A stretch of 64,000 nucleotides of DNA, taken from IMG/VR virus record IMGVR_UViG_3300045988_162372. One strand, written 5' to 3'. The notes under the pieces are model-generated. The model made no database searches and was not told the DNA's origin. It worked only from the letters and a program-made list of their open reading frames with translations. The stretch is from a virus. Positions within the stretch are counted from its first letter, which is position 1; every line of letters starts with the position of its first letter. The position numbers were made by a program, and so were the translations under genes. Below are positions 1,729 to 64,000 of this stretch, one piece after another.

Positions 1729-1860
1729 ACACATTTATTTGAATTCACCAAGCGTTTTCCAGTTTTAACATTAAATTAACCATCTAATATATTTCTGTTA
1801 AACAATGTTATAGCAAAGGAAATTCTATCTGAAAAATTTTGTAGTATGGAAAATTATCAC

Positions 1861-1868
1861 TACCTTTG
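1861..1868 (+). promoter_or_regulatory. -7 promoter box TAnnTTTG (drives sRNA copy B)
   Basis: TAccTTTG; upstream about 30 nt near-identical to promoters at 21291 and 46726. Confidence 0.55.
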
Positions 1869-1873
1869 TAGTG

Positions 1874-1990
1874 TAAAAAGAAAGATAGGGCAAGAGTGAA
1901 ATCTTGAAGTATAATCTCCTTTACGGCTTATTTTTTATAGTTATTGAATATTAAAAAATCCTCAACAATGTTACTTGCCGAGGATTTCTT
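1874..1990 (+). ncRNA. candidate sRNA, family copy B
   Basis: Hairpin CAAGA-GTGAAA-TCTTG 1891-1906; tail AAGTATAATCTCCTTT 1907-1922; hairpin AATCCTC/GAGGATT 1957-1986 + T-rich; no ORF. Confidence 0.5.
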
Positions 1991-2003
1991 GCGTTAAGGC
2001 TTA

Positions 2004-2294
2004 TTAAGCCTTTTTCACATATCTATGCAAACTATCTGCACACATTGGCACGTTATTTGCAGGTATTACGTTTTCATTACGCAAAGCATAACGAAGGTAG
2101 TATTGATGGCGACTTGTTGAAACGCTGTATTTTGTTTCATTCATAATAAAGTTGTAATACCCACGTTCATTTACAAAACGCTCACAAATACAAGTATTGT
2201 AAGAATATAGACGGTTATTGAATATCCGCATATTGCTTCCGTTACCTTCGTTTGCACCATTCACGAATCTTTCACACAAAACTGAATTTTTCAT
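2004..2294 (-). CDS. hypothetical protein (96 aa)
   Basis: ORF track; rc AGGAGG upstream; promoter box 2352-2359. Confidence 0.7.
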   Translation of the reverse strand: MKNSVLCERFVNGANEGNGSNMRIFNNRLYSYNTCICERFVNERGYYNFIMNETKYSVSTSRHQYYLRYALRNENVIPANNVPMCADSLHRYVKKA

Positions 2295-2351
2295 AATTGA
2301 AACCTCCTATTTTATTCGTTAGACTATTTGTTTTATTTCCTAATTGCACTG

Positions 2352-2359
2352 CAAAGGTA
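2352..2359 (-). promoter_or_regulatory. -7 promoter box TAnnTTTG
   Basis: rc = TAccTTTG(CA) upstream of ATG 2294. Confidence 0.65.
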
Positions 2360-2513
2360 GTGAATCCATTTGATATATGCAAATTTTCAGATAGAAATTT
2401 TCTCTAAATAAACATCTTTTAAGATTTATGGTTTGTTTCGTTAAATGGATTTGGCTTATCTGCAATAAATGTGAAATGATGTAAAATTATTTGGCGAATT
2501 CAATTTTTCTTCT

Positions 2514-2521
2514 TACCTTTG
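2514..2521 (+). promoter_or_regulatory. -7 promoter box TAnnTTTG
   Basis: TAccTTTG with TTTG at 2490-2493 (-33 position); upstream of ATG 2553. Confidence 0.65.
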
Positions 2522-2552
2522 CAGCGTTGAAACAATAAAACAAATATAAGAT

Positions 2553-2762
2553 ATGAAACAGATAAACAGATATTATTTAGTGTTTGGTGTATGGTGTGTA
2601 ATACTTGCTTATGCAGTATTTTTCAGCAATAACGTGTATTTTAACGCTATTTTACTTTTCTTTGGTTTTCTTGGATGTGTAACGGCTTATGCCTACATTG
2701 ACGAACATGAAAATGAAAAGGAACGCAAATTTAGTGAAAAAATTGTTAATTTGCTTGGATAA
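2553..2762 (+). CDS. small membrane protein (69 aa, 2 hydrophobic helices)
   Basis: ORF track; hydrophobic segments LVFGVWCVILAYAVFF and AILLFFGFLGCVTAYAYI. Confidence 0.65.
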   Translation: MKQINRYYLVFGVWCVILAYAVFFSNNVYFNAILLFFGFLGCVTAYAYIDEHENEKERKFSEKIVNLLG

Positions 2763-2777
2763 TTCAAATAAAATGAT

Positions 2778-2785
2778 TATCTTTG
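2778..2785 (+). promoter_or_regulatory. -7 promoter box TAnnTTTG
   Basis: TAtcTTTG(CA); AGGAGG at 2803-2808; ATG 2817. Confidence 0.65.
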
Positions 2786-2816
2786 CAACGTAATTAAAAC
2801 ATAGGAGGTAACAAAC

Positions 2817-3029
2817 ATGAAAACAAATTTTTATGTAACCGCAAGTGATAAGGTTTGGGGCGACAAGTTGATCGCCGCTTGTAATAGCCATCAAAAAGCT
2901 CAAGAAATCTTTGATAAGTGGCAAAACCGTAGTGACTTGAAATATGTCAACATACGTTCCACAAAACCGTATTACAAAAAATACGTTATGTATGATGAAA
3001 ACCTTATAGAAATAGAATCTTGTCATTAA
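2817..3029 (+). CDS. hypothetical protein (70 aa)
   Basis: ORF track; strong SD; own promoter. Confidence 0.7.
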   Translation: MKTNFYVTASDKVWGDKLIAACNSHQKAQEIFDKWQNRSDLKYVNIRSTKPYYKKYVMYDENLIEIESCH

Positions 3030-3077
3030 AAGATGTTAAAACATTGGTAAGGATTTGGTTATTTCAAACTTTTTCCT

Positions 3078-3085
3078 TACCTTTG
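3078..3085 (+). promoter_or_regulatory. -7 promoter box TAnnTTTG
   Basis: TAccTTTG upstream of ATG 3132. Confidence 0.6.
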
Positions 3086-3131
3086 TAGAGTAAAAATCAA
3101 AAATCTAACAATCTAAAAATAGATAAGAATT

Positions 3132-3653
3132 ATGGCAACTGGAAATTTTTGTTACGAAAACCGTTGTGTGGTAGTTACAGATGGTGACTACGAAATGGAT
3201 AATCTTCCCGAAATAGGAGAGTGTGTGGATAACTCACGTAATTACCCGTCATATTTGATAGAAGAATTTGAGTTTTGGGATGTTGTCCTAACCGCAGGAT
3301 ATTACGAAGGTGCTTGCATTGACTATATTGAGCATCACAAACATAGCCCTTATGATGTAGTGCAGGGATATATCGGTTATCCTTCTACAAAAAAAGAACT
3401 CTTTAAGGAATGTAAAGAAGCATTCGGTCTGTCAAGACTGAAAATGCAAGCTATTTGCGGAAACGTCGGAGATATGGATATTGATGACTATGTTGAGAAA
3501 GCAACTGAAAAGGTAGGGGAATATCTTGCCGAAAAAGAAGAAAAGGAGGTAAATGAATATATTGACAAGCTGAAAGAAGAATATGGATATGAAGAAGTTT
3601 GCAGAGTTGCAACTTTCAGCAACGGCGAAACAATCTACCGAAAAGTAGGGTAA
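3132..3653 (+). CDS. hypothetical protein (173 aa)
   Basis: ORF track; own promoter. Confidence 0.7.
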   Translation: MATGNFCYENRCVVVTDGDYEMDNLPEIGECVDNSRNYPSYLIEEFEFWDVVLTAGYYEGACIDYIEHHKHSPYDVVQGYIGYPSTKKELFKECKEAFGLSRLKMQAICGNVGDMDIDDYVEKATEKVGEYLAEKEEKEVNEYIDKLKEEYGYEEVCRVATFSNGETIYRKVG

Positions 3654-3692
3654 GAGAAGTAAACATGGGGTAGGGTGAAAATCCCTATCCTA

Positions 3693-3708
3693 TGTACTCA
3701 AATGAGTT
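3693..3708 (+). repeat. dyad motif TGTACTC-N4-GAGTA, copy 1
   Basis: TGTACTCAAATGAGTT, 40 nt after stop of 3132-3653. Confidence 0.8.
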
Positions 3709-3759
3709 CTATTAACATTGTTTAACTAAAAATAATTTGGTAAACACATAGTTTGTTTT

Positions 3760-3767
3760 TATATTTG
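3760..3767 (+). promoter_or_regulatory. -7 promoter box TAnnTTTG
   Basis: TAtaTTTG(CA) upstream of ATG 3785. Confidence 0.6.
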
Positions 3768-3784
3768 CAATGTAATTAAAAGAT

Positions 3785-4090
3785 ATGATTATGAAAGAAA
3801 AGAAATTACCTATTATATTTTATGTTGTTTCATTAGGGTTTGCCTACAAAGATAATTATACTATATGTTTTAATGCTAAAGAAATCAAAAATGCGTTGGA
3901 TAAGTATATTAAGGTTGGGGAAAACACTAATAATGATATCATAATAAAGGTATATCGAATCGAAAATAGACATATACTTGAGGATTTTTCTAGAAGAAAA
4001 TTTGTAGAATTGTATCTTTCAGATGTAAATTATTTTAGTAATGGTTTAAAACATATTGAAGAGATAAGTATAAATTTGAATGAAGAATAA
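3785..4090 (+). CDS. hypothetical protein (101 aa)
   Basis: ORF track. Confidence 0.65.
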   Translation: MIMKEKKLPIIFYVVSLGFAYKDNYTICFNAKEIKNALDKYIKVGENTNNDIIIKVYRIENRHILEDFSRRKFVELYLSDVNYFSNGLKHIEEISINLNEE

Positions 4091-4096
4091 AGGTGT

Positions 4097-4112
4097 TGTA
4101 CTCAAATGAGTA
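4097..4112 (+). repeat. dyad motif TGTACTC-N4-GAGTA, copy 2
   Basis: TGTACTCAAATGAGTA, 7 nt after stop 4090. Confidence 0.8.
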
Positions 4113-4163
4113 TCAAATAACATTTATTAACGATAAAAATTTGGTTATATCAAGATAAAGTAT

Positions 4164-4171
4164 TAACTTTG
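4164..4171 (+). promoter_or_regulatory. -7 promoter box TAnnTTTG
   Basis: TAacTTTG(CA) upstream of ATG 4202. Confidence 0.6.
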
Positions 4172-4201
4172 CAGTGTCGAACGAAAAAAGATAATAAAGC
4201 A

Positions 4202-4372
4202 ATGGAAGAAAGAGATTATATTATCATTAGAGAGAACGGCAAACCTTTGACTTTCAAGGACGGACAGACGGTTGTCTATGGGAGTTATGAAGAGGCTAAG
4301 GACGATTTATGCAAGACTGACCTTTGCATTATGCCCTTGGAAGACTATAACAAGATTATCAATAAACATTAA
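4202..4372 (+). CDS. hypothetical protein (56 aa)
   Basis: ORF 4169-4372 trimmed to first ATG downstream of the promoter box, which lies inside the longer call. Confidence 0.6.
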   Translation: MEERDYIIIRENGKPLTFKDGQTVVYGSYEEAKDDLCKTDLCIMPLEDYNKIINKH

Positions 4373-4391
4373 TAAAATAGGAGGTAATAAT

Positions 4392-4664
4392 ATGAAAGTG
4401 TATGTCATTGTAAGTAACGAGAATAATTTGGGTGAGTTGACTACAAATTGCGAAGGTGTGTTCCTGTCAAAAGACAAGGCGTTGGAACAACTCAAAAAGA
4501 ACGGGGAAGACCTTATGAATGATGAGGATTTTACAGATGAGGAATATGACAAGTATGTGGACGAAGATTGTAATGACTTCAACTTCACGGCAATGAACAA
4601 GGATAACGGTGAAATTGAATATACAATGTATCAATGCGTCCTTGAAAAGGAAATAACCGAATGA
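4392..4664 (+). CDS. hypothetical protein (90 aa)
   Basis: ORF 4272-4664 trimmed to the ATG preceded by TAGGAGGT; N-terminus MKVY... resembles 16187-16393. Confidence 0.65.
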   Translation: MKVYVIVSNENNLGELTTNCEGVFLSKDKALEQLKKNGEDLMNDEDFTDEEYDKYVDEDCNDFNFTAMNKDNGEIEYTMYQCVLEKEITE

Positions 4665-4666
4665 TA

Positions 4667-4682
4667 TGTACTCAAATGAGTA
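4667..4682 (+). repeat. dyad motif TGTACTC-N4-GAGTA, copy 3
   Basis: TGTACTCAAATGAGTA, 3 nt after stop 4664. Confidence 0.8.
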
Positions 4683-4767
4683 TGGTATTCTATTTTTTAA
4701 CGAACTTGAAGAAAAATATTTAGCAAAATTTCAATTTTATTGGCTTGCAATTAACAATTAAATTCAC

Positions 4768-4775
4768 TAATTTTG
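4768..4775 (+). promoter_or_regulatory. -7 promoter box TAnnTTTG
   Basis: TAatTTTG(CA) upstream of ATG 4804. Confidence 0.6.
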
Positions 4776-4803
4776 CAACGTCAAACAAAAAGATAATAAG
4801 ACT

Positions 4804-4974
4804 ATGGACAAGAGATTTGTATATGTAACGGTTAAGATGGAAATCACTAATCCAAACAAGGAGGTTATCACGGACGAGGATATCGAAAATGTTATCAATG
4901 ATGTTGACTACAACTTCAATGATGTGGATGATTTTCATATCAATACTGAAATTGTAGATTATGAATGCAACTAA
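4804..4974 (+). CDS. hypothetical acidic protein (56 aa), not in ORF track
   Basis: Hand translation MDKRFVYVTVKMEITNPNKEVITDEDIENV...VDYECN*; own promoter; the minus ORF 4720-5010 covering it looks spurious. Confidence 0.5.
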   Translation: MDKRFVYVTVKMEITNPNKEVITDEDIENVINDVDYNFNDVDDFHINTEIVDYECN

Positions 4975-4988
4975 ACACAAAGAATAAT

Positions 4989-5258
4989 ATGATGATATTT
5001 GTAATAACACTTTCAGATAAGAAATTTGATGAGAAATACAGAAATTTCTGTTATAAGAATCTCACATCACTCACAAAGCAATTTAGGGGCGATCTGGAAG
5101 ACTATCTTGATGATATGGATGATTACCTTACCGATAAGGATGAAAAGGAACTAGACGAACTTATTTCACGTCTAACAAAAACTTCAAGTGTAGGCAAAAC
5201 TATGAAATTAAAAGGTCTTGGCATTGAATTCACCTTAAGGAAAGAGGATTTGAAATAA
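4989..5258 (+). CDS. hypothetical protein (89 aa)
   Basis: ORF 4965-5258 trimmed to ATG after the stop of the preceding ORF. Confidence 0.55.
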   Translation: MMIFVITLSDKKFDEKYRNFCYKNLTSLTKQFRGDLEDYLDDMDDYLTDKDEKELDELISRLTKTSSVGKTMKLKGLGIEFTLRKEDLK

Positions 5259-5586: not shown

Positions 5587-5660
5587 GGGCCTGTAACTCA
5601 GTCGGTAAGAGTAACTGACTCATAATCAGGAGGTCGCAGGTTCAAGCCCTGCCAGGCCCA
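5587..5660 (+). tRNA. tRNA with CAU anticodon (elongator Met or Ile2/lysidine type)
   Basis: Hand-folded cloverleaf: acceptor GGGCCTG/CAGGCCC, D stem ACTC/GAGT, anticodon loop CTCATAA, T stem GCAGG/CCTGC, T loop TTCAAGC, A73; no encoded CCA. Confidence 0.9.
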
Positions 5661-9936: not shown

Positions 9937-11037
9937 ATGAAAGATATAAAGCAACACTTAAATGTATTAATGTATGATCTTACATTGAAAAAGATAGAAG
10001 ATGTTAAAATCGGTGACTTATTAATGGGTGACGATGGTACATATAGAAGAGTAATAAGTAAAACAAATAAATATGGTAAGATATATAATATACATCAAAC
10101 TAGTGGGGAAGATTATTTTACAAATGGTGAACATACGCTTGTATTAAAAAAATCGGAAACTGCCAAGAGGCCATACGGTAATATAACGAAAAAAGGTACA
10201 CTTCGACATCCTAATGGACGATTGGCATCTTATGAGGATTATGAAAATATGAATATAATAGATTTTTTGCAAAAATCACTTACATTTAGAGAAAATTTTT
10301 TCACTTTTAAACCTACAACAATTCATTGTGAAGAAAAAGAAGTGTATATTGATCCTTATCTCCTGGGTATTTGGTTAGGAGATGGTTCTGCTCGTAATAC
10401 TTCAATAATCTCAATGGATGATGAAATTATTAAGTACATATATGAGTATGCAGACAAAAATAATTTATCTGTGAATAAACTTGAACGGGATTGGGAAAAA
10501 GCTGATGTATATAAATTAAATAGACCACTTGTTAATAGGACAAGGAAGAATGAGCTTCTAGAAAATTTACGAAAATATAATTTAATAAATAATAAACACA
10601 TTCCACAAGAATATATAAATAATAGTGAAAGAGTTAGAATTGAATTAATGGCAGGATTAATAGATACAGATGGCAGTTTGTCTAAAAATAACGTTTATGA
10701 ATTTTATCAAAAATCGTATGATTTTATACGAGATGTTAAAATAATTGCGGATTCTTTAGGATTTAGAACAAGTTTACGTGAAAAGAAAAATTGTATTTGT
10801 AATGGAAAAAATTATGGAACACATTATAGATTAAGTATAAGCGGAGATTTATGGAGAATACCGTGTAAAGTGAAAAGAAAAAAGGTAACAAAAGATATGT
10901 TAAGCAAAAATAAGGATTGGAGAGTTTCAATGATTAAACCTATTGAAATAGGGGATGGCGAATATACTGAAATAAAAGTTGATGGAAATGGAAACTATTT
11001 ATTAGGTGACTTTACAATAGCACATAATTCGATATAG
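9937..11037 (+). CDS. free-standing intein-like (Hint + LAGLIDADG) homing endonuclease
   Basis: Intein blocks: VLMYDLTLKKIEDVKIGD (A, Cys1 replaced by Asn), TNGEHTLVL (B), LLGIWLGDGS and LMAGLIDTDGS (two LAGLIDADG), EIKVDGNGNYLLGDFTIAHNS (F/G); no promoter box; more AT-rich than neighbours. Confidence 0.8.
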   Translation: MKDIKQHLNVLMYDLTLKKIEDVKIGDLLMGDDGTYRRVISKTNKYGKIYNIHQTSGEDYFTNGEHTLVLKKSETAKRPYGNITKKGTLRHPNGRLASYEDYENMNIIDFLQKSLTFRENFFTFKPTTIHCEEKEVYIDPYLLGIWLGDGSARNTSIISMDDEIIKYIYEYADKNNLSVNKLERDWEKADVYKLNRPLVNRTRKNELLENLRKYNLINNKHIPQEYINNSERVRIELMAGLIDTDGSLSKNNVYEFYQKSYDFIRDVKIIADSLGFRTSLREKKNCICNGKNYGTHYRLSISGDLWRIPCKVKRKKVTKDMLSKNKDWRVSMIKPIEIGDGEYTEIKVDGNGNYLLGDFTIAHNSI

Positions 11038-32979: not shown

Positions 32980-33033
32980 CAATGTCAAAAGAAAAAGGTA
33001 ACAAGAATATTAATTTAATGGGAGGTATTAATT

Positions 33034-33276
33034 ATGAGAAGTATTAATAGGATTGGTAGAAAAGATACTATTAAGGCTTATTCTTATGATAAGAATAGAA
33101 AACTTATTACAAGTTTGTACGATAGTGGTTTTCATTCTATTGAAGAAATTGTAAATAGACTTAATGAAAAAGGTTCTGGATGGCTTAAAGCAATCTATGA
33201 GGTTAATATCATTAATGAGGATAAAAATATTTCTTACTGGTATGTTATTAAAGGCAACAAGATTATCAAACAATAG
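33034..33276 (+). CDS. hypothetical protein (80 aa)
   Basis: ORF track; SD. Confidence 0.7.
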   Translation: MRSINRIGRKDTIKAYSYDKNRKLITSLYDSGFHSIEEIVNRLNEKGSGWLKAIYEVNIINEDKNISYWYVIKGNKIIKQ

Positions 33277-33291
33277 AGAGGAGGGTAAAAT

Positions 33292-33783
33292 ATGGACTAT
33301 AAAGAGGAAGTTTTCCCATTAAATAATTTCGCTTTGTTTAGCAAAGGATGGTATTCACCAGTAAATGACGATGAGGATTTATTAACAACGGTAAAACACG
33401 TATTGGCATTGGATGGATATGACTTTATTTCTAATTACAATGACGTTCTTTGTATATTATTGAGCGAGATTGATAGGTACAACAAATATCTGGATAGTGT
33501 TAATGCAAATACTCTTAACTTGTTTAAATTCTGTAAGGAAATTAGTGAAGAAAAGAACTTGTGGCATAAGGATATAAGTAATGAAGAAGCTATTGTGAGA
33601 GTGATTGCAAAATTCTTGCGATATATGGATAGTAAATATATAAAGTTACAATGTCCTTTTTATAGCCGAAAACTTACCAAGAAGTATGGATTAACATTAC
33701 AACCTTTCTTCTATAAAAAGAGTAAGCAGGGAACAACATATAAGGAAATGAACAGAGTTGCAAACAAATATTTTAATCAATAG
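33292..33783 (+). CDS. hypothetical protein (163 aa)
   Basis: ORF track; SD GAGGAGGG. Confidence 0.7.
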   Translation: MDYKEEVFPLNNFALFSKGWYSPVNDDEDLLTTVKHVLALDGYDFISNYNDVLCILLSEIDRYNKYLDSVNANTLNLFKFCKEISEEKNLWHKDISNEEAIVRVIAKFLRYMDSKYIKLQCPFYSRKLTKKYGLTLQPFFYKKSKQGTTYKEMNRVANKYFNQ

Positions 33784-33797
33784 AAACATATCATATT

Positions 33798-34052
33798 ATG
33801 ATAGATACTTACGATAAGTTCTGGGATGCAGTACAGAAGATTGAAAAAACAATTAAGAGTTGTAAAACTATTGCACAAATTGAAAACTGCAAACAATGGA
33901 TGGATAATGTGTGGGATGATAACCTTTTACAATATAAAGGTTTAGGTGTGAGCTTGCAAGACATGGTTGAGATTAAACAATTATTAAATACTGCATACTC
34001 AACCCAACGGCAGATTATCTTAAATAATCAAAACTTAAAAGATGATGAATGA
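33798..34052 (+). CDS. hypothetical protein (84 aa)
   Basis: ORF track. Confidence 0.65.
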   Translation: MIDTYDKFWDAVQKIEKTIKSCKTIAQIENCKQWMDNVWDDNLLQYKGLGVSLQDMVEIKQLLNTAYSTQRQIILNNQNLKDDE

Positions 34053-34218
34053 GAAAGAAGTACAAGATTATATAAATCGTTTGATTACTTTGCAAAAGAA
34101 TGGCGATCCTGAAATAGACCATCCCGAAGCAGATAATATATTGTGCGAGATTATAGAACAATTAGGGTATCCAGAGATTATAAAAGAATACGATAAGATA
34201 CATAAATGGTATAGTTGA
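34045..34218 (+). CDS. hypothetical protein (57 aa), not in ORF track
   Basis: Hand translation MNEKEVQDYINRLITLQKNGDPEIDHPEADNILCEIIEQLGYPEIIKEYDKIHKWYS; overlaps the upstream stop. Confidence 0.5.
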   Translation: MNEKEVQDYINRLITLQKNGDPEIDHPEADNILCEIIEQLGYPEIIKEYDKIHKWYS

Positions 34219-34266
34219 TTTATTATTTATTAACAATAAAAGTTTTGGATATAAAAAACATTTTTG

Positions 34267-34274
34267 TATCTTTG
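34267..34274 (+). promoter_or_regulatory. -7 promoter box TAnnTTTG
   Basis: TAtcTTTG(CA) upstream of ATG 34322. Confidence 0.65.
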
Positions 34275-34321
34275 CAAAGTAATAAGAAAAGAGATTATTA
34301 ACGTTTAAACTGAATTATATT

Positions 34322-35362
34322 ATGTGTTTGATTAGCCAAAGTTTAAAGCCATTCGTAGCTAAGAAAGATTTGAAAGTGTTTAAAATCCTAAACAAGGATG
34401 AAAAAGGTAATTATGAAACACCCTATCAGCATTGCAAAGTTGAACTTAATAGTTTGATGCAAGCTAATGAAAATAGTGGTGATTATAGTAAATATAACTG
34501 GGGAGATGGCGGTCATAAATGCCAATTACAAATTAATGGTGGATTTATTCATTCTTTGTTCCACGATATTAAGGAATATACAGACAATAATAATCCATGT
34601 ATCGTGGTAGCTTACATTCCAGAAGGAACTGAATATTTCATCAGTACAAGGTTTATGGATGTTTGTTCCAAACAACTTAAATTGACAGATGAGATTGTTA
34701 ACATTGATGATGCAGTTCTTTCAAAAGAGGAAATGATGGATATTCTTTCACCAATTTCTGAAACTATTGACAAAGAAAAGGTAGATGCTGGATGGTTGGT
34801 AAAAAGTGATAAGACTTTTCTTCATCCGTCAGAATATACCAACGAAGTGAAAGATGATATTATTGGTGTTGTGGGAAGCATTATTGACGGGAAGATTATC
34901 GTTATTGCTCTTGATAAAACAAGATGCGAATGGTGTCAGAATAATGAGAAAGTAGATGATATGCCTACTATTCCTTATAGTGAGGTATATGATAACTTTA
35001 AGGGAAAAGAATATACTGAAATTATTAAAAATAACAAAAAATATAAAAAGGATAATAGCTATTTTCCTGCGTTTGATTATTGCCTGAAATACAAAACGAA
35101 AGGCACTGAAAGCGGTGATTGGTATCTGCCTTCAAGTGGGGAATTACATAGAATGCTCAATATGAATAGGGATGTCCTTAATTATGCTTTTTTTATTATG
35201 GGTACGGAATTAATAAAGGACGATACGGGTTACTGGGCTTCTGCCGAGACTAGCTCCACGCATGCTTGGAGTTGCTATACGTACGGTGCGGGTCTGGGCT
35301 ATTGGTACGGTAAGTGGGGTAGCGGTTACGTGCGTCCTTCCTTTGCTATTGAGGCTGATTAA
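34322..35362 (+). CDS. protein with C-terminal DUF1566-like (Lcl C-terminal type) domain
   Basis: DWYLPSSGELHRML ... YWASAETSSTHAWS ... GYVRPSFAI pattern; the 3' end is visibly more GC-rich than its surroundings. Confidence 0.6.
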   Translation: MCLISQSLKPFVAKKDLKVFKILNKDEKGNYETPYQHCKVELNSLMQANENSGDYSKYNWGDGGHKCQLQINGGFIHSLFHDIKEYTDNNNPCIVVAYIPEGTEYFISTRFMDVCSKQLKLTDEIVNIDDAVLSKEEMMDILSPISETIDKEKVDAGWLVKSDKTFLHPSEYTNEVKDDIIGVVGSIIDGKIIVIALDKTRCEWCQNNEKVDDMPTIPYSEVYDNFKGKEYTEIIKNNKKYKKDNSYFPAFDYCLKYKTKGTESGDWYLPSSGELHRMLNMNRDVLNYAFFIMGTELIKDDTGYWASAETSSTHAWSCYTYGAGLGYWYGKWGSGYVRPSFAIEAD

Positions 35363-35440
35363 GCCTCTATTAGCAGTGTAACTGCCTTATTGTAAGCAAA
35401 GCGAACTTGTATTAAGCGTTAGCTTTATTATTTACTATAC

Positions 35441-35480
35441 AGATAGTTAGTGGAACATATCTCATTAACTATCTTTTTTA
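35441..35480 (+). terminator. rho-independent terminator
   Basis: Stem AGATAGTTA/TAACTATCT then T6. Confidence 0.7.
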
Positions 35481-35538
35481 TTATTCTATTATTAACGTCA
35501 TTTAACCATAATAATTTTGTCAGACGAAATATTTTTAC

Positions 35539-35546
35539 TACCTTTG
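35539..35546 (+). promoter_or_regulatory. -7 promoter box TAnnTTTG
   Basis: TAccTTTG(CA); SD CGGAGGT; ATG 35591. Confidence 0.65.
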
Positions 35547-35590
35547 CACCTGTAAGAGATAAGGAAATAAACAAATCGGAGGTTAAAGAT

Positions 35591-35767
35591 ATGGATAAGA
35601 CGATTTCTTATGTAATGAATACCGTTGTAGGTAAGATTACAAGTGTAAGCGAATTTATGAACATCGTTTCAGACTATGATTATTGTCAGTTTGGAATAGA
35701 TAGGGGTGAAGGAGATTTCTTTTTCTTTGAATTGAAGATTAAGGAATTGTATAATAAAGGAAGGTAA
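35591..35767 (+). CDS. hypothetical protein (58 aa), possibly the 5' fragment of a gene split by the tnpB element
   Basis: ORF 35450 trimmed to ATG after promoter and SD; ends just before the tnpB element. Confidence 0.5.
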   Translation: MDKTISYVMNTVVGKITSVSEFMNIVSDYDYCQFGIDRGEGDFFFFELKIKELYNKGR

Positions 35768-35874
35768 TAATATACCAGATGACCCAGAAACGAAAAAGTG
35801 ATAAAAAACGAAGTTTTCTATTAATTTTTTGGAAAGTAACCGATATTTATTAATATAATAGAAACGAGAAGAAT

Positions 35875-37095
35875 ATGAAACGTGCATACAAATACAAACT
35901 GAAACCAACAATGAGGCAGCAACAAATGTTGTTGCAGCATTTCGGTTGTTGCCGTTTCATATACAACTGGGGATTGGATAGGAAAAAGAATGCATGGACG
36001 AATGAAAAGAAATCCATAGGTTATCTTCAACTTGCAAGGGAATTAACGCTATTGAAGAATGACGGCGAACATGGTTGGCTGAAAAATGTGGCAAACGAAA
36101 GTTTGCAGCAATCATTAAGAAACTTGGATAATGCTTATACGCAGTTCTTCAAGGCAAAGAAGGGATTCCCCAAATTCAGATCGAAGAAACACAGCAAGAA
36201 CGTATGCAAGTTCATCAACAACGTGCGCTTTGACTTTGATAAATGGAAAGTCAGAATACCCAAGATGGGATGGACAAAGTTGTGTCACAACAAAGCATTT
36301 GACTTGTCCAAATGCAAGATTGGAACTCTTACAGTGTCACAGGACAAATGTGGAGACTACTGGTGCGTAATCATTGTCGAGGATGGTGAAAAACCGAAAC
36401 CGAAAGCCAAGATTTCGGAGAAAACTGCCGTTGGCGTAGATTTAGGCATCAAAGATTTTGCCATATTGTCCGATGGTACAAAATATGGAAATAACAAATT
36501 CCTTGAAAAAGGACAAATACGCTTGAAGAAATTGCAACGCAGGTTTTCAAAAGCACAGAAAGGGTCGAAAAGAAGGGAAAGGCTGAAAATTAAAATCGCA
36601 AGACAGCACAGAAGAATATCCAACCGCAGGTCGAATTTCTTGCACAAACTGACAACCGATTTAATGTGCAAATATGACACAATCTGCCTTGAGAACCTTA
36701 ATGTGCAAGGGATGATGCAAAATCATCATTTGGCAAATGCAATTTCAAGCGTTTCATGGAATGAATTTGTAAGACAACTTGCATACAAAGCCGAATGGAA
36801 TGGGAAAAACGTGATATTTATCGGCAGGTTTGAACCCAGTAGCAAGACTTGCTCTTGTTGTGGGTACATTAAGAAAGACCTATCATTGAAAGACAGAAGT
36901 TGGATTTGCTCCAAATGTGGCGCAAGCCATGACAGGGATGTGAATGCAGCAATAAACATACGCAACTTTGGATTGCATCCACAATCGCAGGTTGCGATAG
37001 AAAATAAAATCCCAGAGGTAACTGGGATAAATACGGACGGTGAGGGCAATGGCACAAGTCACCCTGTGAAACGTCAAGATAATAAACCGTGTTAG
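35875..37095 (+). CDS. tnpB: TnpB (OrfB) RNA-guided endonuclease, IS200/IS605 family
   Basis: N-terminal YKYKLKPT..Q...L...FG.CRFIYN; RuvC-I GVDLGIKDFA; RuvC-II ICLENLN; zinc finger CSCCG...CSKCG; RuvC-III HDRDVNAAINI. Confidence 0.9.
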   Translation: MKRAYKYKLKPTMRQQQMLLQHFGCCRFIYNWGLDRKKNAWTNEKKSIGYLQLARELTLLKNDGEHGWLKNVANESLQQSLRNLDNAYTQFFKAKKGFPKFRSKKHSKNVCKFINNVRFDFDKWKVRIPKMGWTKLCHNKAFDLSKCKIGTLTVSQDKCGDYWCVIIVEDGEKPKPKAKISEKTAVGVDLGIKDFAILSDGTKYGNNKFLEKGQIRLKKLQRRFSKAQKGSKRRERLKIKIARQHRRISNRRSNFLHKLTTDLMCKYDTICLENLNVQGMMQNHHLANAISSVSWNEFVRQLAYKAEWNGKNVIFIGRFEPSSKTCSCCGYIKKDLSLKDRSWICSKCGASHDRDVNAAINIRNFGLHPQSQVAIENKIPEVTGINTDGEGNGTSHPVKRQDNKPC

Positions 37096-37110
37096 CACAG
37101 CGATGCTGGG
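36950..37110 (+). ncRNA. expected omega (re)RNA scaffold at the tnpB 3' end (position inferred, not demonstrated)
   Basis: Family knowledge places the omega-RNA over the tnpB 3' end and right end; hairpins ATCGCA/TGCGAT, ATCCCA/TGGGAT and GGTGA/TCACC seen here. Confidence 0.3.
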
Positions 37111-37238
37111 TGAACATGTATATCATTACCTTGAAAATGATATTGATACTGCACGTTATTACGCTGCACAAGAATTATTCTACGAATGGGTAGAAAATCT
37201 TTAATTCGTAATTTGTTTCATATAAAAATAATACATAA

Positions 37239-37760
37239 ATGCGAAAGATTTTTACATATATTGGAATTTGTTTTGCAATAGCAGGGATGGTCAATGCTGC
37301 AATGGTACATAGTGAAGAAGCAAGGGAAAACGTAACAACTGAAATGTTATTGAATGATAATGTAGACGTTTCATCTGAAATTGTTAAAGAGGATAAAGAA
37401 CTTCTTGCAGAAGAAAACAATATGAAGAAAAACAAGAACACTATTACCCATGTAAAGGTTACTTGTTATCAGCCAGTAGAAGCACAATGTGATAGTGATC
37501 CACTTATAACGGCAGATGGGAGCAAGATTGATTTACATAAATTAAAGAAAGGAAATGTTAAGTGGTGCGCTATTTCACGTGATTTGTTATGGCTCTTTCC
37601 AAAGGATAAACCTAAACGTGTACATATTGAGGGATATGGCATATACGAAGTGAGAGACGTTATGAACAAGCGTTTTAATCACAGAGTGGATATTCTTATT
37701 CATCCGTCAGAAAAGGCTAATATCAGTGAAGAAAATGTAAAAATGACAATTTTAGGATAA
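37239..37760 (+). CDS. secreted 3D-domain (MltA/RlpA-like double-psi barrel) cell-wall protein
   Basis: Signal peptide MRKIFTYIGICFAIAGMVNA; VTCYQPVEAQCDSDPLITADGSKI matches the 3D-domain signature. Confidence 0.65.
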   Translation: MRKIFTYIGICFAIAGMVNAAMVHSEEARENVTTEMLLNDNVDVSSEIVKEDKELLAEENNMKKNKNTITHVKVTCYQPVEAQCDSDPLITADGSKIDLHKLKKGNVKWCAISRDLLWLFPKDKPKRVHIEGYGIYEVRDVMNKRFNHRVDILIHPSEKANISEENVKMTILG

Positions 37761-37772
37761 GGAGGCAATATT

Positions 37773-38099
37773 ATGGAAGTTTTTGGGAACATTGTTTATT
37801 TCATTATTGTTGCAGGTTTGTTATTTCCAGTCAATAGTATTTTGAATGCAGTTAGAAAGAAATATGATAAAGATGCAGATGTTAAAGCGTTTTATATCTT
37901 GGCGAATGTCGATAGGGCTATCTTTATCTTGGCGATGGTTGCATTGATGGGAACATTGAATTTCTTTACAAATGAGCCAGAAGCAATAGATGTATATAGA
38001 GGAAAAACTGAATTATACATTGAACAGACAATGAGAGGTAATAAAGTCATAAAAAGCGACACCACGGTAGTTTTCAAACAAGAAAAATCTATCAAATAA
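37773..38099 (+). CDS. membrane protein (108 aa)
   Basis: ORF track; SD AAGGAGG; 2 hydrophobic helices. Confidence 0.65.
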   Translation: MEVFGNIVYFIIVAGLLFPVNSILNAVRKKYDKDADVKAFYILANVDRAIFILAMVALMGTLNFFTNEPEAIDVYRGKTELYIEQTMRGNKVIKSDTTVVFKQEKSIK

Positions 38100-38143
38100 A
38101 CATCATTTAACATACAATGTTTGGATAATCAAAATAAAATGAT

Positions 38144-38151
38144 TATTTTTG
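38144..38151 (+). promoter_or_regulatory. -7 promoter box TAnnTTTG
   Basis: TAttTTTG(CA); SD AAAGGAGA; ATG 38178. Confidence 0.6.
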
Positions 38152-38177
38152 CATCATAATTAAACAAAGGAGACTTT

Positions 38178-38438
38178 ATGAAAAAGAAATATGAAAAATA
38201 TGTAGGAAAATATTTCAGACGTAAATGTGAACATTATATCATAGTGTTCCATATTATCGGATTTGAAGAAATAGATGTTATTCCTTTCTTTATTGGTGAA
38301 GAGTACATTATGTCAAAGAAAGGCGATAATTTTACAATAGAATGTCGTAAAGGATGTGAGTATTTTTTAGATGTGTTTACTGAAATAACAAAAGAAGAAT
38401 ATGCAGAACAGATTTCTTTGGGGTTTCCCCACGATTAA
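38178..38438 (+). CDS. hypothetical protein (86 aa)
   Basis: ORF track. Confidence 0.65.
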   Translation: MKKKYEKYVGKYFRRKCEHYIIVFHIIGFEEIDVIPFFIGEEYIMSKKGDNFTIECRKGCEYFLDVFTEITKEEYAEQISLGFPHD

Positions 38439-38685
38439 TCAAATAAGGCCTGCCGATAATCTTATTGTGAAGGCTTACGGATGGGATAAGAAAGTCATTG
38501 TAGAGAAAACAATGACAGGCATTCATAAAGTGCAAGACGCAATTAATTCAATTAAAAAATGTACTGACAAAGAAGTGGTGTGGGTTAATATCTACAATAG
38601 TAGACTGGATATTTCAAGAACCTATGCAGTATTTAAGAATACACATAAAAGAACATTAATTTATGGAATTGAAGAGAAATTTTAA
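38401..38685 (+). CDS. hypothetical protein (94 aa; start uncertain)
   Basis: ORF track; 38-nt out-of-frame overlap with the upstream ORF. Confidence 0.45.
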   Translation: MQNRFLWGFPTINQIRPADNLIVKAYGWDKKVIVEKTMTGIHKVQDAINSIKKCTDKEVVWVNIYNSRLDISRTYAVFKNTHKRTLIYGIEEKF

Positions 38686-38863
38686 ATTGGTTTGTTATTT
38701 GTTACTAGGAATAGGAGTGTTAGTGATTATATTAAAGATGTTTGGATTATTACCGTTTCTATCTTGGTGGGTGATATTGTTTCCTATATGGTTTCCGATT
38801 ATGGTTATTATTACTCTTATTCTCATCATTTTCTGTTTCTTGAAATATCATAATGTCATTTAA
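38663..38863 (+). CDS. small membrane protein (66 aa)
   Basis: ORF track; two hydrophobic helices. Confidence 0.6.
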   Translation: MELKRNFKLVCYLLLGIGVLVIILKMFGLLPFLSWWVILFPIWFPIMVIITLILIIFCFLKYHNVI

Positions 38864-38917
38864 CAATCTGATTTTATTATTTAACATATAAAATACTGAT
38901 AATTCAAATATAATTTG

Positions 38918-38925
38918 TATCTTTG
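38918..38925 (+). promoter_or_regulatory. -7 promoter box TAnnTTTG
   Basis: TAtcTTTG upstream of ATG 38974. Confidence 0.6.
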
Positions 38926-38973
38926 TATTGCGATAAGAAAGAAGAAGTTTAATAATTAAAACATGAAAGTGAT

Positions 38974-39279
38974 ATGAACAAGAGCAACAAGAATAAAAAT
39001 TACATGGGAGTACATCTTCGTACTTGGTATGGAGAAACTGCTATGTACTTGCTTAACAGCATTAAGGATAAAAAGATGACTCTTGAGGAAGTTATCCAAA
39101 ACTGGAACAATTGCCTCGGTGAGGGAGATAGTTTTGAATCTGAAAAAATTGATACAAATGATTGTAATAAGTTTTATATAGTTAAGGTAAACTATACTGA
39201 TTATATCATTATGTTCTCAAATTGCGAAAGCGAGGTAGATATGATGTGTGATATTTATGAAATTGAATACGAGTTATGA
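38974..39279 (+). CDS. hypothetical protein (101 aa)
   Basis: ORF track. Confidence 0.65.
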   Translation: MNKSNKNKNYMGVHLRTWYGETAMYLLNSIKDKKMTLEEVIQNWNNCLGEGDSFESEKIDTNDCNKFYIVKVNYTDYIIMFSNCESEVDMMCDIYEIEYEL

Positions 39280-39497
39280 AAACAAACGAAATTATTTCTG
39301 AATTGTGGATTGTTACCGTATATGACGCAAGACATGACGAAATGGTAAAAGAAGTTACGGTAATTGGTAAACAAAACTTAGATAAGGCGATTAAAAACAT
39401 TAAATCCAGTTATATGGGTTATAATGTAGGTGTAAACAAAGGTATTATCTGTTTTGATGGGTATGTTGCGAAGGGTGATTATATAGGAGATTTTTAA
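39276..39497 (+). CDS. hypothetical protein (73 aa)
   Basis: ORF track; ATGA overlap. Confidence 0.65.
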   Translation: MKTNEIISELWIVTVYDARHDEMVKEVTVIGKQNLDKAIKNIKSSYMGYNVGVNKGIICFDGYVAKGDYIGDF

Positions 39498-39500
39498 GGT

Positions 39501-39809
39501 ATGGAAATAATTTTCTATTTTTGGATATTACCAGTTCTGATCGGACTGGTAATATTTTACTTTTGGAAATTCAAAGGACAGACAATAAAAGATTTTGTGG
39601 ATGAAATAAGTTACTATGATAGCATAGTACCGCCATACTGGTTGTTTATTACTTTTCCAATAGTTAATATTTTATTCATTGTCGTATGGTGTGTTTTGAT
39701 GATATATAAGGGCATATTTTTTCTATATAGAAAATTTCTGCAACCTCATATCAATTACGAAAGACTGAATAATATATTAGATAAGTTTTTGAATTTAAAA
39801 ATAAAATGA
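39501..39809 (+). CDS. membrane protein (102 aa)
   Basis: ORF track; hydrophobic helices. Confidence 0.65.
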   Translation: MEIIFYFWILPVLIGLVIFYFWKFKGQTIKDFVDEISYYDSIVPPYWLFITFPIVNILFIVVWCVLMIYKGIFFLYRKFLQPHINYERLNNILDKFLNLKIK

Positions 39810-40039
39810 AAGATTTTGTATATTTGTGTTTAGGAATCTGGTTTATATTATGTATAGTTGCATTCTTTTATTCCAGTTATGAAAAGGATGAACAAGAGAA
39901 GTTAATCAAGATAGGTGATAAAGTTATACTTGGAAATGACACGTTGATAGTCACCAAAATAGAATTATTTGATAAAACCTATCTTCATAACGGAGCTATT
40001 ATAGACACCAATTTTGCAATAGAAAATTTGAGTAAATGA
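39806..40039 (+). CDS. membrane-anchored protein (77 aa)
   Basis: ORF track; N-terminal TM; ATGA overlap. Confidence 0.65.
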   Translation: MKDFVYLCLGIWFILCIVAFFYSSYEKDEQEKLIKIGDKVILGNDTLIVTKIELFDKTYLHNGAIIDTNFAIENLSK

Positions 40040-63146: not shown

Positions 63147-64000
63147 ATGACATTAAATTTAACGTATAAAGGAAATAAATGGTTGAGTGGGGCAATTCCT
63201 GCTCTTTTGATACACTGCTGCATTGGCAGTGTATATTGTTGGTCTTTGATTAAGAACAACATCGCAATTGAAATGGGTGTGGCTTCTTCCCAAATTGAAT
63301 TTGCATTTTCATTGGCAATTTTCTTTTTGGGCATGAGTGCTGCGTTCTGTGGCAGATTCATCGAAAAGAACGTGAAGTATTCTTCACTTATTTCAGCGAT
63401 TTGCTTTACTTCTGGATTGTTCTTGACAACAGTTGCGATGCATTTGCATAGTATACCCTTGCTGTTCTTATCTTACGGATGTATCATGGGTATCGGATTG
63501 GGTATAGGCTATTTAAGTCCAGTCAAAACATTGATGTTATGGTTCAGCGAACATAAGGGCTTGGCAACTGGTATTGCTATTAGTGGCTTTGGATTATCAA
63601 AAGCAATTCTTTCACCATTCATTGAATGGTGTAATGCAAATTATTCCATTTATGTAACATTGTGGGCTATTTCATTGATAAGTATGTTCTGTATGTTATT
63701 GGCTTCAGCACTTATTAAAAAACCTGAAGGATGGGTGGAAACTACTGATAAATTTTCGATAAAGGATGTGTGGAAAATAATTACAAATTCAGAGTATATT
63801 AAGATATGGCTGATATTTTACATTAACATAACCTTGGGTTTATGTCTGATAAGTTTTGAGAAAGATTTATGTCTTACTAACGGCATAGTTGCTGTGGGCA
63901 TTATATCGTCATTAACGGCATTGTTCAATACTATTGGTAGATTTGGCTATTCTTCCTGTTCGGACTTTTTAAAACGTAAGGAAATAATCTATGTTATTAT
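63147..64000 (+). CDS. MFS transporter, oxalate/formate antiporter-like, partial (runs off window end); not in ORF track
   Basis: Hand translation MTLNLTYKGNKWLSGAIPALLIHCCIGSVYCWSLIKNNIAIEMG... with successive TM helices; G.VY.WS motif near the N-terminus. Confidence 0.7.
   Translation, partial: MTLNLTYKGNKWLSGAIPALLIHCCIGSVYCWSLIKNNIAIEMGVASSQIEFAFSLAIFFLGMSAAFCGRFIEKNVKYSSLISAICFTSGLFLTTVAMHLHSIPLLFLSYGCIMGIGLGIGYLSPVKTLMLWFSEHKGLATGIAISGFGLSKAILSPFIEWCNANYSIYVTLWAISLISMFCMLLASALIKKPEGWVETTDKFSIKDVWKIITNSEYIKIWLIFYINITLGLCLISFEKDLCLTNGIVAVGIISSLTALFNTIGRFGYSSCSDFLKRKEIIYVI

Follow-up and report, generated by a model that had tools for sequence, protein, structure and literature searches.

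A tnpB gene in a large phage is probably cargo of a transposase-less IS1595-type element

Introduction

TnpB is well known as an RNA-guided nuclease, and phage-borne TnpBs and solo TnpBs are equally familiar. The rules by which the guide and the transposon-associated motif (TAM) of a TnpB are predicted come from scar-free elements of the IS200/IS605 and IS607 families, in which inverted repeats and target duplications are both absent (PMC13565253, PMC4810608, PMC6188088). Here, we analyze a tnpB gene in a stretch of 64,000 nucleotides (the window) from IMG/VR virus record IMGVR_UViG_3300045988_162372. A first-pass annotation, made from the letters of the window, had filed this gene under IS200/IS605. 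We suggest instead that it is probably the cargo of a 1368-bp non-autonomous derivative of the IS1595 family, a family of DDE transposons, in which terminal inverted repeats (TIRs) enclose only tnpB and its predicted omega-RNA.

TnpB has been associated with DDE transposases before. In the available part of their article, Altae-Tran et al. 2023 describe six DDE-associated TnpB branches (DDE-1 to DDE-6), all of which have inverted terminal repeats; solo TnpBs share such ends, and the DDE transposase named there with TnpB is IS630 (PMC10691335). A 2026 review gives ISL2, IS630 and IS1031 as DDE-TnpB associations and describes them as rare in prokaryotes, and whether RNA-guided nucleases help DDE transposons that make target-site duplications (TSDs) is still debated (PMC13565253). 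A full-text literature search, assessed by title and abstract, returned no link between TnpB and IS1595; as far as the available part of the 2023 article goes, overlap with one of the branches DDE-1 to DDE-6 is possible (PMC10691335).

Results

Close protein relatives of the window TnpB (85-92% identity) in ENA and Logan assemblies occupy four gene contexts besides that of the window, of which three or more look phage-like. The DNA similarity of these sister copies to the window sets in sharply at GGKAAT and stops as sharply at ...ATTACC, which places the element at 35763-37130 rather than at 35770-37210, the span first proposed. The ends are TIRs of ~24 bp, the left starting with GGTAATAATATACC and the right finishing with GTATATCATTACC; exact matches to the TIR motif GGKAATNATATAC lie at 35763-35775(+) and 37118-37130(-). 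The right-end stretch ...GGTATATNNTTNCC is kept among TnpB relatives as low as 47% identity, and in L001, a relative with 67% identity, the two TIRs match each other at 20/22 positions. GC content is about 0.40 in the element versus about 0.30 in its flanks. The close copies came only from the ENA and Logan assemblies, via protein look-ups, and the exact right-end pattern of the close subfamily was found neither in IMG/VR nor in GTDB genomes.

When the element is defined as GG...CC and the 8 bp on each side are compared, seven independent TnpB insertions carry perfect 8-bp TSDs (Table 1), and the flanks of an additional copy, L010, match at 7/8 positions. Counting TnpB-bearing and other elements together, 33 TIR pairs are flanked by a TSD.

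Several lines of evidence connect these ends to IS1595. First, a scan with the TIR pattern GGKAAYNATATACCNGTTKWC gave at least 120 loci in GTDB genomes and 116 loci in IMG/VR, and the GTDB loci listed come mostly from metagenome-assembled genomes (MAGs) of Bacteroidales, Prevotella and Muribaculaceae from ruminants, and also from Streptococcus and Dehalococcoidia. In the loci that were fetched, some of the TIR pairs with perfect 8-bp TSDs enclose elements of 2.2-5.8 kb that encode a protein of 305-334 aa. Second, these proteins match Pfam DDE_Tnp_IS1595 with 124-154 bits and score 182-206 bits against NCBIfam transpos_IS1595 (cutoff 75); Zn_ribbon_IS1595 is matched at E<=0.001 in five of the six transposases tested, three of which lie above the Pfam cutoff. 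Third, the left TIR of the window is identical at 18/22 positions to the TIR of one transposase-encoding element (L323). The remaining content of TIR pairs with TSDs consists of miniature elements of 246-557 bp, cargo-only elements, TnpB elements of 1319-1438 bp and elements of 1327 bp. Elements with such ends occur both in phage contigs from gut and rumen and in bacterial genomes. In ISfinder, the ISNwi1 group of IS1595 has ends of the form 'ggnnatTAT' and 8-bp repeats, and some of its members carry passenger genes.

The 1368-bp element contains no gene for a Y1 (HUH) TnpA, as the first-pass annotation had noted, and the transposases encoded between such ends are instead DDE enzymes of the IS1595 family. 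TIRs and 8-bp TSDs are thus shared with elements that encode IS1595 transposases, and we therefore regard the window element as a transposase-less IS1595-type derivative with tnpB as its cargo. The boundaries, the TIRs and the relationship to IS1595 are very probably correct. The filing under IS200/IS605 is not upheld by the TIRs or by the 8-bp TSDs of the sister copies, both of which are common to IS1595 elements. An assignment to the IS607 family was also considered and does not agree with the TIRs, the 8-bp TSDs and a score of 231 bits against IS607_TnpB, for which the cutoff is 350.

Among the loci listed, TnpB occurs at 16/116 phage TIR loci versus 0/120 bacterial ones, and an IS1595 transposase at 22/116 and 19/120, respectively. 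Miniature elements bounded by the same TIRs, with perfect 8-bp TSDs, lie in Muribaculaceae MAGs and phage contigs (L130 488-733, L253 607-985, L192 2279-2732, L268 3615-4130 and L345 6534-7090). Streptococcus harbors IS1595-type elements of 5-5.8 kb with perfect TIRs and TSDs (L113 2646-7615, L124 1956-7729 and L155 1552-7329), in which the transposase is accompanied by several cargo genes, including a 484-aa ORF for L113 and, for L124 and L155, ORFs of 654 and 332 aa.

A second TnpB lineage occupies the same type of element. Elements of 1327 bp with the same IS1595-type TIRs and perfect 8-bp TSDs (L261 7928-9254; also L264, L276, L277, L283, L292 and L314) encode a TnpB of 403 aa that is 22% identical to the window TnpB and contains OrfB_IS605 and TNB domains; it gave no helix-turn-helix match, and the aligned region has no CxxC motifs. 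In both lineages, the gene has the same orientation relative to the end, and its 3' end lies within ~40 bp of the TIR.

Judged from its sequence, the protein encoded in the window is almost certainly an intact TnpB. It matches HTH_OrfB_IS605 (PF12323; aa 1-46, 63.5 bits), OrfB_IS605 (PF01385; aa 173-283, 92.4 bits) and Cas12f1-like_TNB (PF07282; aa 295-362, 88.3 bits), all three above the gathering scores. Against the NCBIfam models, it reaches 334 bits for guided_TnpB (NF040570; cutoff 100) and 383.8 bits for IS200_TnpB, under the cutoff of 425. In a phmmer search, its best natural PDB match was the TnpB of ISDra2 (8BF8/8EXA/8H1J; 255 bits). In this alignment, D189 of GVDLG corresponds to D191 of ISDra2 TnpB and E273 of CLENL to E278, while HDRDVNAAINI (D353/D355) falls onto the HDRD motif of RuvC-III; the zinc-finger cysteines are C326/C329 and C345/C348. 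The TnpB hallmarks read from the ORF at the outset are therefore borne out by Pfam, NCBIfam, the PDB alignment and invariant residues, and the alignment that had been proposed as a check shows that the D-E-D triad and the CxxC pairs match ISDra2 TnpB. The triad and zinc-finger residues are invariant in an alignment of 14 sequences that includes relatives of 63-92% identity. The 431 GenBank phage records with a TnpB homologue are all <60% identical to the window TnpB. Compared with five sister copies, codons 1-365 have a ratio of nonsynonymous to synonymous divergence (dN/dS) of 0.06-0.10 at a dS of 0.4-1.0. Purifying selection on the gene is strong.

The last 230 nt of the element were aligned for 17 sequences, including relatives of 54-92% protein identity. 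The RNAalifold consensus contains 22 pairs, 11 of which have compensatory changes. For the helices at 37009-37028 and 37036-37075, 98.8% of the cells are paired, versus 84.5% in column shuffles and 30-44% with the partners slid, and both sides change in 10/19 pairs. A further hairpin around 36961-36996 is supported by minimum free energy (MFE). The three hairpins originally placed at 36985-37075 were thus essentially right: covariation underlies 37009-37028 and 37036-37075, and MFE 36961-36996. The last hairpin before the right end was recognized by inspection; RNAalifold missed it because of indels, and its sequence variants include GACAC-TATT-GGTGTC in L001, CTTGTC-TTAGG-GACAAG in L049 and GTTGGC-TACT-GCCAAC in L032. 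In codons 366-406, which overlap the RNA, dS relative to the five sister copies drops to 0.16-0.21, versus 0.4-1.0 upstream. The low dN/dS upstream and the reduced dS in these codons indicate that protein and RNA are both under selection. Rfam yielded no omega-RNA family, neither for the whole window at gathering thresholds nor for 35700-37250 at E-value thresholds, and apart from a tRNA returned a chance snoRNA match only. Of the comparison with omega-RNA models foreseen initially, the Rfam part was thus negative, and covariation was seen in our own alignment. We consider it highly probable that a conserved structured RNA overlaps the 3' end of tnpB, as had been expected from family knowledge, and runs on to the right end.

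Upstream of tnpB, a sigma-70-like promoter match lies inside the left end (Table 1); a scan of the element region found such sites no more frequently than in shuffles. The block around this match, ...TTTTGAAAA...ATATTTAT..., is kept among family members. The left end also contains a small imperfect inverted repeat at 35799-35823, TGATAAAAAAC..AGTTTTCTATTA, for which matching variants were seen by eye in L010, L023 and L028.

Among copies at different sites, conservation stops abruptly after ...ATTACC, and the flank differs in every context. Because conservation extends to 37130, the guide is predicted from 37131 onward, a position that is probably correct by analogy with described TnpBs. The first-pass annotation had rightly expected the guide just outside the right end; its coordinates, 37100-37125, lie ~10-30 nt too far left of an end at 37130. 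The window guide has 1-2 mismatches to the intact allele of two relatives, where it is preceded by ...ATATGA; in one of these relatives (L022), the empty allele reads TTGAAAATAATATTGATACT after ...ATATGA.

Since the TSD and the right flank follow the right end, a candidate TAM is to be sought where the left flank precedes the target in the empty site, rather than beside the left end of the element. At positions -2/-1, 7/8 of the TnpB-bearing copies with perfect or 7/8 TSDs have AA. The first base past the right end is T in 25/25 TnpB copies and in 7 more from a scan of IMG/VR with the conserved core motif of the omega-RNA, which added nine loci and, among these, no new perfect TSDs. The second lineage shows TAA-AA in 6/6 insertions, i.e., TAA 5' of a TSD that begins with AA. 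No mirror-image bias was seen on the 3' side of the TnpB-bearing copies, the transposase-only elements showed neither flank pattern, and the sequence immediately outside the left end contains no conserved motif of 4-5 nt. These flank biases suggest ...AA-T (or WRA) as a TAM candidate; an A-rich TAM in the left flank is a tentative prediction, and we would not be surprised if it failed. GGKAAT was rejected as a TAM, because it mirrors the right end and belongs to the TIRs of IS1595 elements. For the window copy itself, reading the TAM from the empty site, as the first-pass annotation had envisaged, fails: the element replaces 222 bp and leaves no clean TAM-target junction.

This replacement is evident from two IMG/VR relatives of the window phage, which are 91-96% identical to the window up to 35762 and again from 37131 and lack TnpB. 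Where the window has the 1368-bp element, these relatives have 222 bp (74 codons) of in-frame coding sequence of a 155-aa gene (L022 5271-5738), of which the window retains both ends (Table 1). The loss of the TSD in the window copy is explained by this 222-bp deletion. Either an insertion sequence-mediated adjacent deletion or recombination between two insertions at a distance of 222 bp would produce this arrangement. An ancestor naturally lacking the 222 bp was considered and rejected, since a stop codon and a frameshift result when the flanks are joined via GGTAAT. Each of the at least 11 contigs found via the identical neighboring protein, including one of 312,870 bp, has the insertion; nine have the full gene and two are broken inside tnpB, as is typical of a repeat.

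Two observations concern related contigs. Nucleotides 1-517 of a 36-kb contig (L023) correspond to 63483-63998 of the window with ~98% identity (translated); the contig is from a near-identical phage. At 4001-5221, ~3.5 kb past the right end of the window, this contig has a second TnpB copy of 406 aa that is 89% identical and has the TSD TTAATGCA; the window phage probably has at least two copies of this element family. In four contigs of IMG/VR 3300045988 (L313, L307, L303 and L285), the TnpB element lies in the same place with left flanks that are 91-95% identical, and the 7-470 bp after the right end differ; in this group, the guide-side flank seems hypervariable or unstable.

The phage context assumed at the start was borne out, and the phage is of ~313 kb. 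The window encodes a terminase-like ORF, many small same-strand ORFs with either no PHROG match or a match to 'unknown', and one tRNA. A megablast search of 33000-40000 against GenBank phages gave no match. At the gathering threshold, Rfam matches nothing in the window except the tRNA gene (5587-5660; Rfam tRNA, 70.5 bits). ORF 62084-63130 matches a PHROG for phosphoribosylglycinamide formyltransferase, an auxiliary metabolic gene, and ORF 9937-11037 has weak terminase-large-subunit or helicase-like PHROG matches.

Table 1. Positions of the element, its parts and the interrupted phage gene in the window, and target-site duplications of related TnpB insertions
Feature	Position	Strand	Sequence or remarks
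Truncated 5' part of phage gene, 58 codons	35592-35767	+	stop TAA supplied by left TIR (GGTAAT)
Whole mobile element, 1368 bp	35763-37130	+	TIR / promoter-like region / tnpB / omega-RNA scaffold / TIR; no transposase gene
Left TIR	35763-35786	+	GGTAATAATATACCAGATGACCCA; 19/24 identical to reverse complement of right end
Sigma-70-like promoter match	35830-35859	+	TGGAAA-18-TATAAT; inside left end, 16 nt upstream of tnpB start; weak evidence
tnpB, 406 aa, ATG start	35875-37095	+	RuvC triad D189/E273/D355; CxxC...CxxC zinc finger
Omega-RNA hairpin	37009-37015/37022-37028	+	covariation
Omega-RNA nested three-part stem	37036-37039/37072-37075, 37043-37046/37062-37065, 37050-37053/37058-37061	+	covariation
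Terminal scaffold hairpin	37086-37118	+	pairing kept, sequence variable; 3' arm is inner part of right TIR; by inspection
Right TIR	37107-37130	-	reverse complement GGTAATGATATACATGTTCACCCA; also last ~24 nt of predicted omega-RNA scaffold
Predicted guide	37131-37150	+	TTGAAAATGATATTGATACT; first ~16-20 nt outside right end; predicted from TnpB biology
Orphaned 3' end of same phage gene, last 25 codons	37131-37207	+	ends ...ENDIDTARYYAAQELFYEWVENL and stop
TSD of L001			TAATATAT
TSD of L023			TTAATGCA
TSD of L025			TTATCTTA
TSD of L028			TAATTATT
TSD of L032			TAATTTAA
TSD of L042			TTTCTTTA
TSD of L058			TTACAATA

Discussion

Taken as a whole, the locus is best explained as a non-autonomous member of the IS1595 family whose TIRs enclose only tnpB and its omega-RNA, and we consider this explanation likely. 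Several observations weigh against it. The two TIRs of the window copy are only 19/24 alike and are 16-18/22 identical to the TIRs of transposase-bearing elements, and its flanks form no TSD (TAAAGGAA versus TTGAAAAT; 3/8 positions match); because of the diverged TIRs and the missing TSD, this copy may have lost its mobility. A TSD is missing from about half of the TnpB copies examined, and the sister copies differ by 8-13% in protein, with nothing pointing to very recent transposition. A tblastn search found no IS1595 transposase in the element or in the 64-kb window, and the element can therefore only be a non-autonomous member of the family. Among the loci examined, there is no TIR pair that encloses both an intact TnpB and an IS1595 transposase. 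The flank bias is based on eight and six insertions in AT-rich DNA, and the omega-RNA, guide, TAM and cleavage are inferred. Of the loci examined for an autonomous partner, L041 is the only one that has both genes: here, an IS1595 transposase gene at 1852-2787 (-) lies head-to-head with a tnpB gene at 3001-4155 (+), the product of which is 58% identical to that of the window and which has two stop codons. No enclosing TIR pair was found at L041, and it could be a decayed autonomous element with both genes or two adjacent insertions.

The alternative that survives best, although we consider it improbable, is domestication: the window copy would no longer move, the phage would retain TnpB and its RNA for a function of its own, such as cutting the intact allele of competitors, and the ends would be relics. 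The absence of a TSD, the diverged TIRs and the purifying selection on TnpB would all be expected, as would the presence of the insertion in every contig with the identical neighboring gene and the near-match between the predicted guide and the intact allele of the two relatives. However, a guide that equals the adjacent flank is what any copy would have, and the mismatch at guide position 9 together with the ATGA 5' flank in the relatives may not allow cleavage. The data fit neutral fixation in a dispensable gene equally well, which is not separable from a kept function. Moreover, mobility of the whole family is evident from the five or more sites among close copies and from the clean TSDs. 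The first-pass annotation had set a fixed, end-less domesticated copy in all relatives against its own proposal; this does not apply to an element with sharp ends and at least five distinct insertion sites, yet this one insertion is found in all of the at least 11 contigs.

Less probable still is that the TIR and TSD architecture is real and TnpB a mere passenger, with the flank bias reflecting only which targets the IS1595 transposase prefers in AT-rich phage DNA. In its favor, the samples behind the flank bias are small, unrelated cargo of other kinds is found between the same TIRs in IS1595-type elements (L297, L262, L113 and L124), and it has been argued that DDE elements have no obvious need of a nuclease for their retention (PMC13565253). 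Against this stand the strong conservation of both TnpB and the overlapping RNA, and the recurrence of two unrelated TnpB lineages in one element type, in the same orientation and with the gene 3' end within ~40 bp of the TIR. The bias is also asymmetric, affecting the 5' and not the 3' flank, and is absent from transposase-only elements, and TnpB is confined to the phage side of the TIR loci listed (16/116 versus 0/120).

A canonical IS200/IS605 (IS1341-type) solo TnpB, moved as single-stranded DNA by a Y1 TnpA in trans and inserted 3' of a 4-5-nt TAM without duplication, is very unlikely, because the protein, although closest by sequence to TnpBs of this type (IS200_TnpB; ISDra2 in PDB), scores below the 425-bit cutoff, because TIRs and 8-bp TSDs are absent from that family by definition (PMC13565253, PMC4810608), and because no 4-5-nt motif is conserved outside the left end, where GGKAAT mirrors the right end and is common to IS1595 elements; the small imperfect inverted repeat seen by eye in the left end, at about 35799-35823, would be in its favor.

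We return to a transposase-less IS1595-type element and suggest how it may work. The element would be moved in trans by an IS1595 transposase from the host or from another phage-borne copy. The tnpB transcript would be processed to the omega-RNA, with its 3' guide read from the flank, 37131 onward; in an intact copy, the guide would consist of the 8-bp TSD and the next ~10 nt. The TnpB-RNA complex would then cut the matching empty site, with the left flank as TAM (...AA or WRA), while ...TTACC in front of the target would spare the filled site. In phages, this could favor retention of the element or its copying into co-infecting relatives. The window copy would have lost its TSD beside the 222-bp deletion of a dispensable 155-aa phage gene. 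A role of the nuclease in homing or competition among phages is conceivable but speculative.

In a broader and equally doubtful proposal, IS1595-type TIR transposons of gut and rumen jumbo phages would have captured TnpB and omega-RNA at least twice independently; the right TIR would serve as the 3' end of the scaffold, the guide would begin with the TSD, and the TAM would be the left flank. The nuclease would drive homing as well as adjacent deletions and hypervariability, and these elements might represent a prokaryotic counterpart of the Fanzor-bearing TIR transposons.

The locus offers a compact natural case, in which a 1.37-kb element with known ends is accompanied by transposase-bearing partners, miniatures and a second TnpB lineage, mostly in large phages. 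It makes three questions testable: whether a TIR can be the end of an omega-RNA, whether a duplicated target can lie inside a guide, and whether TnpB biases inheritance in phage co-infection. Labelling such genes 'IS200/IS605 transposase' and reading the TAM beside the left end would lead to wrong predictions.

Compared with described systems, the features that stand out are the IS1595 chassis, a TIR that doubles as RNA end, two TnpB lineages on one chassis, and the enrichment in phages. TnpB/OMEGA of ISDra2 resembles the window system in domain order, the RuvC D-E-D triad, the zinc finger, and a structured RNA that extends over the gene 3' end to the right end and is followed by a variable flank. 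However, ISDra2 has subterminal hairpins and scarless, TAM-adjacent insertion, whereas the element described here has TIRs and 8-bp TSDs. In addition, the last ~24 nt of its RNA scaffold coincide with the predicted transposase-binding TIR, and the sequence abutting its left end cannot be the TAM. With the DDE-1 to DDE-6 branches, as far as the available part of their description goes, it shares a TnpB in TIR elements, a tnpB 3' end near the transposon end, and solo copies that are presumably mobilized in trans (PMC10691335); it differs in its IS1595 relationship, in that the carriers are mostly large phages, and in the two unrelated TnpB lineages on the same TIRs. The TIR type GGnnAYnATATAC... 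and the 8-bp TSD are those of IS1595 elements that encode transposases with DDE_Tnp_IS1595 and Zn_ribbon_IS1595 domains; by contrast, the window element has no transposase gene, an RNA-guided nuclease as cargo, and no TSD in the window copy.

Two further systems are comparable by lifestyle. Fanzors are likewise RNA-guided TnpB-type nucleases and travel on DDE/TIR transposons that duplicate their target (PMC3627910, PMC10530073), whereas the window TnpB is a compact prokaryotic/phage protein of 406 aa with no sign of eukaryotic origin. The free-standing homing endonuclease genes of T4-like phages are also selfish nuclease genes in large phages that interrupt or lie between phage genes and next to which the DNA varies among relatives, and like them, the window element could bias inheritance in co-infection. 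In contrast to these genes, the window tnpB lies between transposon ends, and the target of its product would be set by a flank-derived RNA rather than by the protein itself.

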